Origin: Escherichia coli 042
GTDB lineage: Bacteria; Pseudomonadota; Gammaproteobacteria; Enterobacterales; Enterobacteriaceae
Assembly (NCBI RefSeq): GCF_000027125.1
Contig: NC_017627.1
DNA length: 64,000 bases
Direction: 5' to 3' (one strand)
In this document: positions 58,829 through 64,000 of the stretch, in pieces
How positions within the stretch are numbered: position 1 is the first letter of the stretch
How the letters are laid out: each line of letters starts with the position of its first letter
Translations under genes and position numbers: made by a program
The notes under the pieces: generated by a model
What the model was told of the DNA's origin: nothing
The model's input: only the letters and a program-made list of their open reading frames with translations
Database searches by the model: none

Positions 58829-58895
58829 ACCATCCTGCACTTACAATGCGCAGAAGGAGTGAGCACAGAAAGAAGCCTTGAACTTTTCCGGGCAT
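58821..58895 (-). CDS. tap: Tap / RepA6 leader peptide translationally coupled to repA1
   Basis: 24-aa [27 protein letters not shown] overlapping the repA1 start. Confidence 0.7.
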
Positions 58896-58904
58896 ATAAC
58901 TATA

Positions 58905-58996
58905 CTCCCCGCATAGCTGAATTGTTGGCTATACGGTTTTTAGATGGCCCCGGTAATCTTTCATGTCGCCAAACTTGAAGAAGATTATCGGGGTTT
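58905..58996 (+). ncRNA. copA: CopA-like antisense RNA (ends approximate)
   Basis: Plus-strand stem-loop ccccggtaatcttt...aagattatcgggg followed by ttttcactttt, antisense to the repA leader. Confidence 0.5.
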
Positions 58997-59127
58997 TCAC
59001 TTTTCTGGCTCCTGTAAATCCACATCAGAACCAGTTCCCCGCCACCTTATGGCGTGGCCAGCCACAAAATTCCTTAAACGATCAGCAATCTATCACTCAC
59101 GCCTGAGATAAGCAAGAATGTGAATAC

Positions 59128-59385
59128 TCACAAAGCCACTCTGCGTTTCAGCTCTGATTCAATCAGTTTTTCAAGCATCTGCGCCTGGGTAATACCTTCC
59201 TCATCTGCCAGTTCACTCAGCCTGTCTTTTAAACGGGCCTGGATAACCGCATGAAAAGCCTTATGAGTGTTGCTTCTGCGAGCCAGAGAAGCCCTTTGCC
59301 TCTCTCTGGCCGGAACAGGGTTACCTTTCCGGTATGCACGCTTGGTGCCTGATGAGGAAGTCACTGCATTTTCTGTCTGCGACAT
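59128..59385 (-). CDS. repA2: RepA2 / CopB transcriptional repressor of repA1
   Basis: 85 aa [11 protein letters not shown]...[19 protein letters not shown], CopB-like. Confidence 0.9.
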
Positions 59386-59507
59386 CTCGCCTCCTCAATA
59401 CTTAAACAGGGATCGTTTCGCAGAGGATACTACAGTTTTTTGAAATCAGCGACTTGAGAATTGTGACGAAGATCTGTGTTGGCGCACAAATCATGTCTGT
59501 ATGAAAG

Positions 59508-60139
59508 AGCCTGTACATAGATTTGTGTAATTGCCTGATTTTGATATGTTCAATCCAGCATCAAATGAAGGTTAATTTATGGACGAAAAACAGTTACAGG
59601 CTCTGGCTAACGAACTGGCCAAAAACCTCAAAACCCCTGAAGACCTCAGTCAGTTTGATCGGCTGCTGAAAAAGCTCAGCGTTGAAGCCGCTCTCAATGC
59701 AGAGATGACACACCATCTTGGGTATGAGAAAAATCAGTCCAGACCAGGAGCTAATTCCCGCAACGGTTATTCCACAAAGACCGTTATCACAGGCGACGGT
59801 CCACTGGAACTGCGTACTCCGCGCGATCGTGACGGTACCTTCGAACCACAACTGGTAAAGAAAAATCAGACCCGTATTACCGGGATGGATAACCAGATCC
59901 TCTCGTTGTATGCCAAAGGGATGACCACCCGTGAGATAGCCGCTGCGTTCAAAGAACTGTATGACGCAGATGTTTCACCGGCACTGATATCAAAGGTTAC
60001 CGATGCCGTGATGGAGCAGGTTGTAGAATGGCAAAACCGACCACTGGATGCTGTTTACCCCATTGTTTATCTTGACTGTATCGTCCTGAAAGTTCGGCAG
60101 GACAGTCGCGTCATCAACAAATCGGTGTTCCTGGCACTG
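59508..60139 (+). mobile_element. IS256-family IS, 5-prime portion (transposase N-terminal 187 aa), truncated by IS629
   Basis: MDEKQLQALANELAKNL...NGYSTKTVITGDGPLELRTPRDRDGTFEPQLVKKNQTRI...LISKVTDAVMEQVVEWQNRPLD, IS256/mutator-type N-terminus. Confidence 0.6.
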
Positions 60140-61378
60140 TGAACCGCCCCGGGTTTCCTGGAGAGTGTTTTATCTGTGAACTCAGGCTGCCAGATCATTG
60201 TTTCCGATGGAAGCATAATAAGCTTTTTCTGCTTCTGCCGGAGGAGTATGGCCCAGCCTTTCCAGCAATCGTCGATTGTTATACCAGTCCACCCACGTGA
60301 GTGTGGCCAGTTCTACTTCTGCACGGTTTTTCCAGCTCTTACGGTGTATTACCTCCGCTTTGTAAAGACCATTGATGCTCTCCGCCATCGCGTTGTCATA
60401 CGAGTCGCCTGTACTTCCTGTTGATGCCAGTAATCCGGCTTCCTTAAGCCGCTGTGTGTAGGCCAGCGATACATACTGAGAACCTTTATCACTGTGATGG
60501 ACCGTGCCGGACGGTCGACGGGCCCATAACGCCTGCTCCAGTGCATCCAGCACGAATGTCGTTTCCATGGACGATGAGACCCGCCACCCCACGATGTATC
60601 CGGCAAACACATCAATGATGAACGCCACATAGACGAAGCCCTGCCATGTGCTGACGTAAGTAAAATCAGCCACCCACAGCTGGTCAGGTCGTTCTGCCAC
60701 GAACTGACGGTTTACGCGGTCGCCTGCGGCAACGGCTTTCCGGCTGATGGTCGTACGGACCTTTTTACCCCGGAGAACACCGGCAAGTCCCATAACCGCC
60801 ATGAGACGTGCCACAGTGCATCTGGCCACTCTGATACCTTCCCGTAACAACTGACGCCAGACTTTACGCACACCGTATACCTTGTGATTTTCATCGTATA
60901 CGCGCTGTATCTCTTTCTTCAGCCAGTTATCGCGCTGCGCACGGGCACTGCGTTTATCCGGATGATGTCGCTGTTGCTGACAGTGGTAATACGTTGACGG
61001 GGCAATATGCAGTTCGCTGCATAGCGGTCCGACCCCGTACTGCTCACGCAGCTTATCCAGCAGTGGCATCATTTTTTCCAGAGGCGGTCGAACTCCGCCT
61101 TCGCAAAATAAGCGGAAGCCTGGCGAAGAATATCGTTACTGCGGCGCAGTTCACGATTTTCACGTTCCAGCTCTTTCAGACGCTGACGTTCAGCGCTGGT
61201 GAGCCCACCATCACCGCCCCCGGTATCCCGCTCATGCTGGCGAACCCAGACACGCAGAGTCTCCGGCGTACAGCCAATCTTTGGGGCAATGGAACAAATT
61301 GCCGCCCACTGTGAGTCATATTCATCCTGACTTTCCAGAACCATACGAATCGCCCGCTGACGGACTTCGGGGGAAAAA
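60140..61378 (-). mobile_element. IS629 (IS3 family), copy 1, lacking about 70 bp of the orfA-proximal end
   Basis: Right terminus tgaaccgccccgggtttcctggagagtg at 60140; intact orfB 60182-61072; orfA start replaced by the terminus of copy 2. Confidence 0.85.
60182..61072 (-). CDS. IS629 OrfB transposase (DDE), copy 1
   Basis: 296 aa [31 protein letters not shown]... Confidence 0.9.
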
Positions 61379-61420
61379 TGAACCGCCCCGGGTTTCCTGG
61401 AGAGTGTTTTATCTGTGAAC

Positions 61421-62311: not shown

Positions 62312-62634
62312 TTTTTCCAGAGACGGTCGAACTCCACCTTCGCAAAATAAGCGGAAGCCTGGCGAAGGATATCGTTACTGCGGCGCAGTTCACGATTTTC
62401 ACGTTCCAGCTCTTTCAGACGCTGACGTTCAGCGGTGGTGAGCCCACCATCACCGCCCCCGGTATCCCGCTCATGCTGGCGAACCCAGACACGCAGAGTC
62501 TCCGGCGTACAGCCAATCTTTGGAGCAATGGAACAAATTGTCGCCCATTGTGAGTCATATTCGCTCTGACTTTCCAGAACCATACGGACTGCCCGTTGAC
62601 GGACTTCGGGGGAAAAACGAGTATTTTTAGTCAT
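62308..62634 (-). CDS. IS629 OrfA
   Basis: 108 aa [23 protein letters not shown]... helix-turn-helix / leucine zipper. Confidence 0.9.
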
Positions 62635-62688
62635 CCTGTTTACCTCTTTCTCAGGGAGTTTAGTCTCCAGGATTCCCGGGGCGGTTCA

Positions 62689-63333
62689 TCGTATTGATGC
62701 CCAGTGCCAGGAACACCGATTTGTTGATGACGCGACTGTCCTGCCGAACTTTCAGGACGATACAGTCAAGATAAACAATGGGGTAAACAGCATCCAGTGG
62801 TCGGTTTTGCCATTCTACAACCTGCTCCATCACGGCATCGGTAACCTTTGATATCAGTGCCGGTGAAACATCTGCGTCATACAGTTCTTTGAACGCAGCG
62901 GCTATCTCACGGGTGGTCATCCCTTTGGCATACAACGAGAGGATCTGGTTATCCATCCCGGTAATACGGGTCTGATTTTTCTTTACCAGTTGTGGTTCGA
63001 AGGTACCGTCACGATCGCGCGGAGTACGCAGTTCCAGTGGACCGTCGCCTGTGATAACGGTCTTTGTGGAATAACCGTTGCGGGAATTAGCTCCTGGTCT
63101 GGACTGATTTTTCTCATACCCAAGATGGTGTGTCATCTCTGCATTGAGAGCGGCTTCAACGCTGAGCTTTTTCAGCAGCCGATCAAACTGACTGAGGTCT
63201 TCAGGGGTTTTGAGGTTTTTGGCCAGTTCGTTAGCCAGAGCCTGTAACTGTTTTTCGTCCATAAATTAACCTTCATTTGATGCTGGATTGAACATATCAA
63301 AATCAGGCAATTACACAAATCTATGTACAGGCT
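62689..63333 (-). mobile_element. IS256-family IS, 5-prime portion, inverted copy
   Basis: Reverse complement of 59508-60139 plus 13 extra bp at the IS629 junction. Confidence 0.6.
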
Positions 63334-63455
63334 CTTTCATACAGACATGATTTGTGCGCCAACACAGATCTTCGTCACAATTCTCAAGTCGCTGATTTCA
63401 AAAAACTGTAGTATCCTCTGCGAAACGATCCCTGTTTAAGTATTGAGGAGGCGAG

Positions 63456-63713
63456 ATGTCGCAGACAGAAAATGCAGTGACTTCCTCATCAGGCACCAAG
63501 CGTGCATACCGGAAAGGTAACCCTGTTCCGGCCAGAGAGAGGCAAAGGGCTTCTCTGGCTCGCAGAAGCAACACTCATAAGGCTTTTCATGCGGTTATCC
63601 AGGCCCGTTTAAAAGACAGGCTGAGTGAACTGGCAGATGAGGAAGGTATTACCCAGGCGCAGATGCTTGAAAAACTGATTGAATCAGAGCTGAAACGCAG
63701 AGTGGCTTTGTGA
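63456..63713 (+). CDS. repA2: RepA2 / CopB, second copy in inverted orientation
   Basis: Identical 85-aa protein; part of an inverted repeat of 58841-60139. Confidence 0.9.
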
Positions 63714-63844
63714 GTATTCACATTCTTGCTTATCTCAGGCGTGAGTGATAGATTGCTGATCGTTTAAGGAATTTTGTGGCTGGCCACGCCATAAGGTGGC
63801 GGGGAACTGGTTCTGATGTGGATTTACAGGAGCCAGAAAAGTGA

Positions 63845-63936
63845 AAACCCCGATAATCTTCTTCAAGTTTGGCGACATGAAAGATTACCGGGGCCATCTA
63901 AAAACCGTATAGCCAACAATTCAGCTATGCGGGGAG
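63845..63936 (-). ncRNA. copA: CopA-like antisense RNA, second copy (mirror of 58905-58996)
   Basis: Coordinate mirror of the first copy within the inverted repeat. Confidence 0.45.
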
Positions 63937-63945
63937 TATAGTTAT

Positions 63946-64000
63946 ATGCCCGGAAAAGTTCAAGGCTTCTTTCTGTGCTCACTCCTTCTGCGCATTGTAA
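63946..64000 (+). CDS. tap: Tap leader peptide, second copy, truncated by window end
   Basis: atgcccggaaaagttcaaggcttc... runs to the window edge; a second repA1 may follow outside the window. Confidence 0.5.
   Translation, partial: MPGKVQGFFLCSLLLRIV

Follow-up and report, generated by a model that had tools for sequence, protein, structure and literature searches.

The basic replicons of IncFII plasmids such as R1 and R100 follow the order copB-copA-tap-repA1-CIS-oriR, with the origin (oriR) placed downstream of the initiator gene repA1. The concentration of CopA antisense RNA follows gene dosage and inhibits translation of repA, and the RepA initiator prefers to act in cis. Extra, incomplete FII/FIC replicons are familiar on IncF plasmids, e.g., the RepFIC remnant of F and those of multi-replicon IncF plasmids, where an additional control region without a usable origin acts at most as an incompatibility and dosage determinant. 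Here, we describe 2 IncFII control regions that face each other across copies of the insertion sequence (IS) IS629 at the end of a 64,000-nt stretch of DNA from Escherichia coli 042 (contig NC_017627.1; the whole stretch is called the window below). These modules are probably a genuine and inherited head-to-head arrangement of the IncFII(FIC) type centered on IS629, in which a complete left replicon copy (called R1 hereafter, not to be confused with the plasmid of that name) would be accompanied by an oriR-less right copy (R2) that doubles CopA and CopB, and which would have originated by an IS629 event. Compared to plasmids R1 and R100, the left side of the window has every element of the basic replicon in canonical order and spacing; what differs is that the window carries a second, inverted control part 2.6 kb upstream and that the native DNA upstream of copB (hok and beyond) is swapped for a fragment of IS1414. 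Similar to the incomplete secondary IncF replicons, R2 would be an extra control region without a usable origin and act at most as an incompatibility and dosage determinant. In contrast to the RepFIC remnant of F, the remnant in relatives of our plasmid retains an intact repA1 identical to that of the working copy, and it faces the working copy head to head from the other side of an IS instead of lying at another place on the plasmid.

A repeat search run on window positions 56000 to 64000 detects a single inverted pair, 58841-60139 (the visible part of the left arm) and 62702-64000 (the right arm, which ends at the window edge), with arms of 1,299 nt each that are 100% complementary and 2,562 nt apart, as well as a direct repeat whose copies start at 60140 and 61379. 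A first-pass annotation made from the letters alone had already described this exact inverted duplication, and the contents that it assigned to the arms (the start of tap, copA, copB/repA2, and the 5′ part of an IS256-like element) are all found on both of them. A perfect match of 1,299 nt is far beyond chance. Since 58841 and 64000 are mirror positions (58841 + 64000 = 60139 + 62702), the outer limit of the repeat is the window edge and no biological boundary, and the true arm length cannot be deduced from the window.

The left arm leads into R1, which reads as a complete basic replicon. Its copB (repA2) gene for the 85-amino-acid repressor lies on the minus strand at 59128-59385 (NF010256, 133 bits with a cut-off of 87), and the copA antisense RNA gene lies on the plus strand at 58913-59002 (Rfam RF00042, 97.8 bits with a gathering score of 60), with a promoter-like site (TTGAAC-17-TATACT, 58878-58906) just upstream. 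The complete gene for the Tap leader peptide (24 amino acids; 58821-58895, minus strand) overlaps the start of repA1 (57971-58828, minus strand; TIGR03474, 579 bits), which is intact, encodes an IncFII initiator of 285 amino acids, and lies outside the visible repeat. The same RepA1 protein is encoded twice in JBFOCD010000001.1 and in JBFOAM010000004.1. The oriR region (57640-57800, minus strand) contains the only perfect DnaA box of the window (TTATCCACA, 57787-57795, around 175 nt downstream of the repA1 stop codon) followed by an AT-rich stretch. With copB, CopA, tap plus an intact repA1, and an oriR region, R1 has all constituents of an IncFII basic replicon and is very probably the working origin. 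This view draws on the replicon typing of the complete relatives in PLSDB, which reports IncFIA and IncFIC only, together with a tblastn search with a RepE sequence that found no RepE/FIA-type replicon in the window, in p542093_2, or in pRHBSTW-00320_2, a weak negative.

On the right arm, the second copies of copB (63456-63713, plus strand), copA (63839-63928, minus strand; RF00042, 97.8 bits), and the first 18 codons of tap (63946-64000, plus strand, up to the window edge) are identical to their left counterparts, while the position of the R2 repA1 falls past the edge. What probably lies there can be gauged from 2 relatives, p542093_2 (CP091411.1), a plasmid of human enteroaggregative E. coli (EAEC) with which the window is collinear from 1 to 64000, and JBFOCD010000001.1 (95.5 kb), an independent assembly with the same structure that was found by exact look-up of the RepA1 protein. 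In p542093_2, which has the same right junction, arms of around 2,276 nt carry repA1 on both sides, and the 2 copB and 2 repA1 genes of JBFOCD010000001.1 are all intact, with protein products identical to those of the window. The repA1 gene at the R2 position is present and intact in both records, so that the second inverted repA1 that the first-pass annotation had suspected beyond the edge is indeed seen in the 2 closest complete relatives, with the window syntenic throughout. By synteny, the right arm of the window probably continues as R2 with an intact repA1 and no oriR.

The end of R2 is well defined in these relatives. The right arm of p542093_2 departs from the IncFII sequence at the equivalent of window position 57862, around 110 nt past the repA1 stop codon and around 70 nt before the DnaA box, and the sequence past repA1 continues with the 3′ end of IS2 orfB, an IS2 terminus, a gene for an isoprenoid enzyme, idi, and the aat genes. 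The same boundary of repA1, IS2 remnant, and isoprenoid gene is found without IS1414 and without an inverted repeat in CP056609.1, CP056614.1, and CP056903.1. Within the last 30 nt before it, the p542093_2 right arm and these 3 plasmids have 5 differences in common that the left arms do not have, so the distal end of the p542093_2 right arm has its own ancestry. In every relative with R2, the IncFII sequence is replaced by the IS2 remnant before the DnaA box; judged by synteny, R2 would be unable to initiate replication, being oriR-less. One could argue that the right arm instead continues into repA1 and a complete oriR, giving 2 working replicons with oppositely oriented functional IncFII origins, since it is identical to the left arm as far as the window reaches and the window content is compatible with an oriR past 64000. 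Yet this is quite unlikely, because the IncFII sequence ends ahead of the DnaA box, at one and the same IS2-remnant boundary, in both complete relatives that have the joint and in every relative with R2, and because the window is collinear with those relatives throughout.

R2 is not confined to plasmids with the head-to-head joint. In pRHBSTW-00320_2 (CP056609.1) and JBFOAM010000004.1, R1 and R2 are direct repeats around 30 kb apart, each inside a 7.5-kb duplication of IS1414-stabB-parA-IS30-hok-copB-tap-repA1. The R1 side of these plasmids continues into oriR, a toxin-antitoxin pair, and a cargo of immunity, MFS, and iron-transporter genes as in window 50065-59493 (99.4% to 99.9% identity), and their R2 side continues into the IS2 remnant and then virulence genes. 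R2 is hence an established feature of the plasmid family, and the window would be a variant in which R1 and R2 have come to stand face to face; as R2 already exists as a direct repeat in sister plasmids, the arrangement is more than a newly made duplicate of the working replicon.

Two relatives show further changes in these regions. In the oriR-linked left arm of p542093_2 (8378-10653), copB, repA1, and the spacer together show one substitution and four private 1-nt indels, and neither copB nor repA1 has a gene annotation; these changes are either real decay or sequencing errors, and the indels are private to that record, given that JBFOCD010000001.1 is intact in both copies. Plasmid p55989 (6870-6873, compared to p542093_2 14680-16606) seems to have an R2 region shortened by a 1.9-kb deletion, in which IS1414 is cut at the equivalent of window position 59710 and joined straight to the IS2 remnant by the isoprenoid genes, and copB-tap-repA1 is gone.

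Both inner boundaries of the arms coincide with exact IS629 termini, in line with the IS-mediated rearrangement that the first-pass annotation had offered as one option. Its proposal of 2 IS629 copies between the arms is right as to their number, but copy 1 is truncated and the spacer additionally holds 13 nt of IS1414. Copy 1 (60140-61378, minus strand, 1,239 nt) has its right terminal inverted repeat (IRR) directly abutting IS1414 and keeps an intact orfB and the ALIL frameshift pseudoknot (60998-61114); it ends at its position 1239 and is without the 71 nt that hold the left terminal inverted repeat (IRL) and the start of orfA. The IRR of copy 2 (61379-62688, minus strand) follows this position immediately. 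Copy 2 is complete by sequence and IS3 transposase model, with a length of 1,310 nt, an IRR (TGAACCGCCCCGGGTTTCC) starting at 61379 and an IRL (TGAACCGCCCCGGGAATCC) ending at 62688, orfA (62308-62634), orfB (61421-62311), and the ALIL pseudoknot (62237-62353; RF01497, 111.6 bits), i.e., everything expected of the element in length, terminal repeats, reading frames, and frameshift signal. Copy 1 is defective, and copy 2 looks intact. The 2 copies differ at 20 of 1,239 sites (1.6%). An active tandem dimer, (IS)2, was considered and rejected, as there is no abutted IRR-IRL and copy 1 is without its IRL end.

The DNA on either side of the IS629 pair shows that this is no simple insertion, as there is no target-site duplication and both flanks consist of one IS1414 sequence in opposite orientations and with different end points. 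The N-terminal part of an IS256-family transposase is found on both arms, and database matches identify the element as IS1414. Its left end and 5′ part on the left arm (59506-60139, plus strand) break at a position that we call p (…GGCACTG, then IRR), and an open reading frame (ORF) of 187 amino acids in this fragment (59579-60142) stops in a TGA of the IS629 IRR. The inverted copy on the right arm (62689-63335, minus strand) reaches p+13 (…GGCACTGGGCATCAATACGA, then IRL); its last bases, 62689-62701 (tcgtattgatgcc), are a continuation of IS1414 that has no left-arm partner, through which intact IS1414 copies match and which on the minus strand adds GINT to the transposase frame. With 634 and 647 nt of the left end on the arms, as opposed to both ends and a transposase gene (with astA inside) in full IS1414, the fragments in the window are dead. 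Neither the 3′ part of IS1414 nor a reciprocal joint is present in the window or in p542093_2. In the latter, a single IS629 carrying a group II intron forms the spacer, and IS1414 extends to p+15 next to IRR and to p+13 next to IRL.

Further marks link the arms to each other. A 12-nt filler between the native DNA upstream of copB and the IS1414 left end (59494-59505, mirrored at 63336-63347), recognized by comparison with sister plasmids, marks the loss of a 5.9-kb stabB-parA-IS30-hok stretch that those plasmids keep. Both arms also lack 1 nt at a position 4 nt from the IS629 end, a private deletion (AATACGA versus AATATCGA in intact IS1414 copies). With the filler joint, the 1-nt deletion, and an identity that extends to the IS termini, the arms share 3 private features. 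Since the IS1414 3′ part is also missing from the window and p542093_2, we favor copying of one arm from the other over 2 independent IS629 insertions.

IS1414 fragments and the IS629 intron also appear in other settings. An IS1414 left-end fragment of 211 nt at window 162-372, located after the finO/ANR region, is inverted and 99.5% identical to 59507-59717, and p55989 retains the complementary IS1414 part from the equivalent of 59710, so that an old break at around nt 204-211 of IS1414 is seemingly common across pAA plasmids. In 2 European Nucleotide Archive (ENA) gut metagenome contigs (L032 and L035), IS1414 with the private 1-nt deletion meets IS629 at p+15 beside a different left neighbor, a Gp49/HTH pair resembling HigBA, and without copB; the IS1414::IS629 composite thus exists in at least one other context. 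A break near p+10 in plasmids of enterotoxigenic E. coli with IS1414 beside copB (L004) was discarded, as BLAST had broken the alignment at a mismatch and IS1414 is intact there. The group II intron (2,274 nt, ltrA) sits at a site corresponding to window 60655-60663 in IS629 copy 1 and 61894-61902 in copy 2; IS629 with the intron at this site is found in p542093_2, JBFOCD010000001.1, JBFOAM010000004.1, and contigs L028 and L038, and both copies in the window are intron-free.

An inverted repeat that runs into the edge of the analyzed sequence could also be an artefact, in which a collapsed or chimeric long-read assembly gave rise to a spurious inverted copy and a spurious second IS629 close to the end of a contig, as the first-pass annotation had considered. 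A Logan contig (L012, from SRR33512385) spans 58838-60139 and starts 3 nt from the mirror of the window end, where a graph-based contig might end. Against this explanation, the arms meet exact IS termini on the inside and are offset by 13 nt, unlike a spacer-less fold-back, the 2 IS629 copies differ at 20 sites unlike a mis-assembled duplicate, and each of the 3 junctions is found in independent data. The right junction (IRL / p+13) is present in CP091411.1 and JBFOCD010000001.1; the left junction of the window (p / IRR) is read through identically in one Logan contig and one ENA metagenome contig (L010 and L013); and the tandem IS629 joint, with the copy 2 IRR on copy 1 position 1239, occurs in metagenome contig L038, whose copy 1 part contains the group II intron at the same site as in p542093_2. 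The left junction of the p542093_2 type (p+15 / IRR) is found in 18 contigs, many from human gut metagenomes, one of which (2,339 nt) is exactly one arm as expected of a collapsed repeat. Given that the junctions recur independently and that the IS629 copies are 1.6% divergent, an assembly artefact is very unlikely. Regarding the ends of short-read contigs, some stop at arm boundaries (L009 and L030) and others cross the outer boundary (L007 and L008). Contig L012 itself has 1,302 nt and is 100% identical to the arm; the 3-nt offset of its start from the mirror of 58841 is possibly a coincidence, or the assembly graphs of this lineage might branch where tap/repA1 starts, e.g., because of a SNP between the arms or another IncF replicon.

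Neither the right junction nor the R2 boundary is found in any of 5,426 RefSeq complete E. coli genomes, i.e., the lineage is rare among closed genomes, and a megablast search of the window against E. coli genomes returned no record covering at least 80% of the query. The exact right-junction pattern has no match in the genome, metagenome, or viral contig collections, and exact-protein look-ups with the 200-amino-acid product of the right junction and the 128-amino-acid ORF at the tandem junction found no record. The ancestral simple insertion, i.e., IS629 IRL followed by the IS1414 3′ part, has 0 matches in metagenome contigs, and neither arm junction occurs as a simple IS629 insertion in PLSDB.

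How the joint arose can be approached from the chemistry of IS3-family elements, which attack the flank of the partner end at a distance of around 3 nt, as with IS911 and IS629. Similar to what is seen for copy-out/paste-in elements of this family (IS911, IS2, and IS629), all joints in the window are exact IS629 ends, and one IS629 is joined beside or inside another as in targeted insertion next to IS ends. Unlike their usual products, neither the element nor the pair is surrounded by a target-site duplication, there is no abutted IRR-IRL junction, and one flank is duplicated in inverted orientation, which is not a described standard outcome of transposition. During copy-out/paste-in transposition, the end that has been cleaved is transferred into the flank of its partner at a short, constant distance from it, which creates the spacer of the circle junction (PMC7780238). 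The p+15 and p+13 flank ends of p542093_2 adjoin the site attacked by such transposases, and the flank break 2 nt outside IRR is near the normal attack site in the recipient flank (PMC7780238).

In the scenario that we favor, R2 would have pre-existed as a replicon remnant, as in the sister plasmids where R1 and R2 are distant direct repeats, and the head-to-head joint would have been made by an IS629 event inside IS1414. In normal figure-eight formation, the IRL 3′ end would be joined to the same strand 3 nt outside IRR; here, it may instead have been transferred to the complementary strand, 2 nt outside IRR in the R1-side flank. Transfer of IRL to the complementary strand between p+13 and p+14, at a site almost opposite to the normal attack site, would yield exactly the right junction that is observed. 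The R1 flank would thereby be copied in inverted order, and the copy might then have been resolved into the pre-existing R2 by homologous recombination, giving the outer end. Later local IS629 events would account for the tandem, the truncated copy, and the 15-nt shorter left junction of the window, which may have lost these 15 nt in a deletion flush with the IS end. Losses of this kind are characteristic of IS629 (PMC9943667), and the 15-nt difference between lineages at an IS end recalls the adjacent deletions of the IS3 family, including those promoted by IEE (PMC9943667).

The most economical order of events would lead from the tandem IS629 (window) via a tandem with intron (L038) to a single recombinant IS629 with intron (p542093_2 and JBFOCD010000001.1), and the presence of tandem joint and intron on L038 suggests that the single-copy form descends from the tandem form. 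A single crossover between the window copies as source of the p542093_2 IS629 proved an incomplete account, as its SNPs are a mosaic (copy 1/copy 2/copy 1) and its junction is at p+15 instead of p. The mosaic pattern shows that gene conversion has blurred the IS629 history.

Fold-back or tandem-inversion duplications made by strand switching at inverted repeats have been described in Salmonella and E. coli. Like these, the structure in the window has an inverted copy of a flank joined at a pre-existing inverted repeat (the IS629 terminal repeats) and then remodeled by recombination and deletion; it differs in that the center is a whole IS region of 1.3 to 2.6 kb, not a short quasi-palindrome, and in that the joint may be the work of the transposase instead of replication slippage.

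Several observations weigh against parts of this account. The sequence past 64000 lies outside the window, and the continuation of R2 is read from relatives. A strand switch needs a second, non-homologous joint to close the circle, and the other inversion joint of p542093_2 (12275-12755) is unrelated to IS629. The 2-nt offset is one nucleotide off the canonical attack position. The arm junctions of the window come from 2 IS629 alleles, the copy 1 IRR and the copy 2 IRL, that are 1.6% apart, which fits an origin from 2 elements at least as easily. Finally, the p542093_2 IS629 is a mosaic of both alleles with a left junction 15 nt from that of the window, which makes any order of events provisional.

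A two-element origin is the core of the main competing explanation, an inversion between the pre-existing direct repeats R1 and R2. It would start from IS629 in both IS1414 copies in opposite orientations, or from one copy that transposed replicatively into the other IS1414 or the other IS629, after which recombination or transposition would have flipped the segment with R2, the isoprenoid genes, and aat; arm identity would be due to gene conversion, and all steps would be standard ones. Relatives with direct repeats do exist and have IS1414 correctly oriented upstream of both copies, and the segment from R2 to aat in p542093_2 is inverted relative to pRHBSTW-00320_2. The 2 IS629 alleles at the arm junctions of the window and the attachment of the copy 2 IRR inside copy 1, a transposition-type joint, likewise speak for it, and the occurrence of 3 IS629 junctions within 15 nt of IS1414 (p, p+13, and p+15) possibly indicates a preferred target. 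Nevertheless, such an inversion requires that IS629 inserted twice independently at sites 2 nt apart, and that the second copy acquired the private 1-nt deletion as well as the 5.9-kb loss together with the 12-nt filler. Moreover, the reciprocal joint and the IS1414 3′ part are both gone from p542093_2 and the window, and the second inversion joint of p542093_2 is not IS629. We regard this explanation as a serious possibility that falls short of being probable, and we rate the strand-switch version somewhat higher.

For the plasmid, R2 would double the supply of CopA RNA and CopB, which inhibit in trans, and probably that of RepA as well. The predicted effects are a stronger negative control and a stronger IncFII incompatibility, with a copy number of around half if RepA made from R2 does not reach oriR and a largely unchanged one if it does. 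If the arms recombine, the only outcome is an inversion of the IS629 spacer between them. It is conceivable, but doubtful, that the structure reveals more than this, namely an undescribed side reaction of IS3-family transposases in which an end attacks the complementary strand and folds back the flank, combined with 2 repA/copA/copB sets on one oriR that are kept by dose compensation in EAEC plasmids globally.

The remainder of the window belongs to an F-type conjugative plasmid of the pAA/AAF-II family of EAEC, with a tra region, a leading region, parM/stbA, a cargo block, and a RelE/ParE pair preceding the IncFII replicon; the p542093_2 relative carries the virulence genes aaf, aggR, aap, aar, and aat. 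Part of the tra region (22090-36033) is present in the window and absent from p542093_2, which has IS1 at the break, so that the transfer region of the window is more complete. The cargo block (51965-56337) encodes a bacteriocin-immunity protein (55715-55990), an MFS transporter (54315-55637), and an iron ABC transporter; it is >99% identical in pRHBSTW-00320_2 and JBFOAM010000004.1, and a microcin B17 operon takes its place in p542093_2 and JBFOCD010000001.1. The RelE/ParE toxin (99 amino acids) and its antitoxin (87 amino acids) are encoded at 56349-56901 directly after oriR and are annotated as yacA/yacB in some relatives; the toxin has no NCBIfam match at default threshold.

All parts of the locus (IncFII replicon, CopA/CopB/Tap, IS629, IS1414, and IS2) are known, and the IS629-centered head-to-head arrangement is already contained in public records; the literature that we searched held no paper linking IS1414, IS629, and the head-to-head structure. 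The structure is a case of real IS-driven IncF plasmid mosaicism and not a new kind of system. It leaves the current understanding of IncFII control unchanged, and its mechanistic interest is modest and would depend on a demonstration of either the strand-switch origin or a dosage-compensated design with 2 sets of control genes on one origin. For typing, it means that plasmids of the pAA/AAF-II family carry 2 FII/FIC control regions with, in the relatives, only one origin, and that replicon typing, coverage-based estimates of copy number, and short-read assemblies, which collapse the 2.3-kb arms, can be misled. It also illustrates in detail how a virulence plasmid can survive while IS629, IS1414, and IS2 rearrange its replication region. 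If the extra dose of CopA and CopB indeed lowers copy number or strengthens incompatibility, the stability of these plasmids and the exclusion of other IncFII plasmids in EAEC would be affected.

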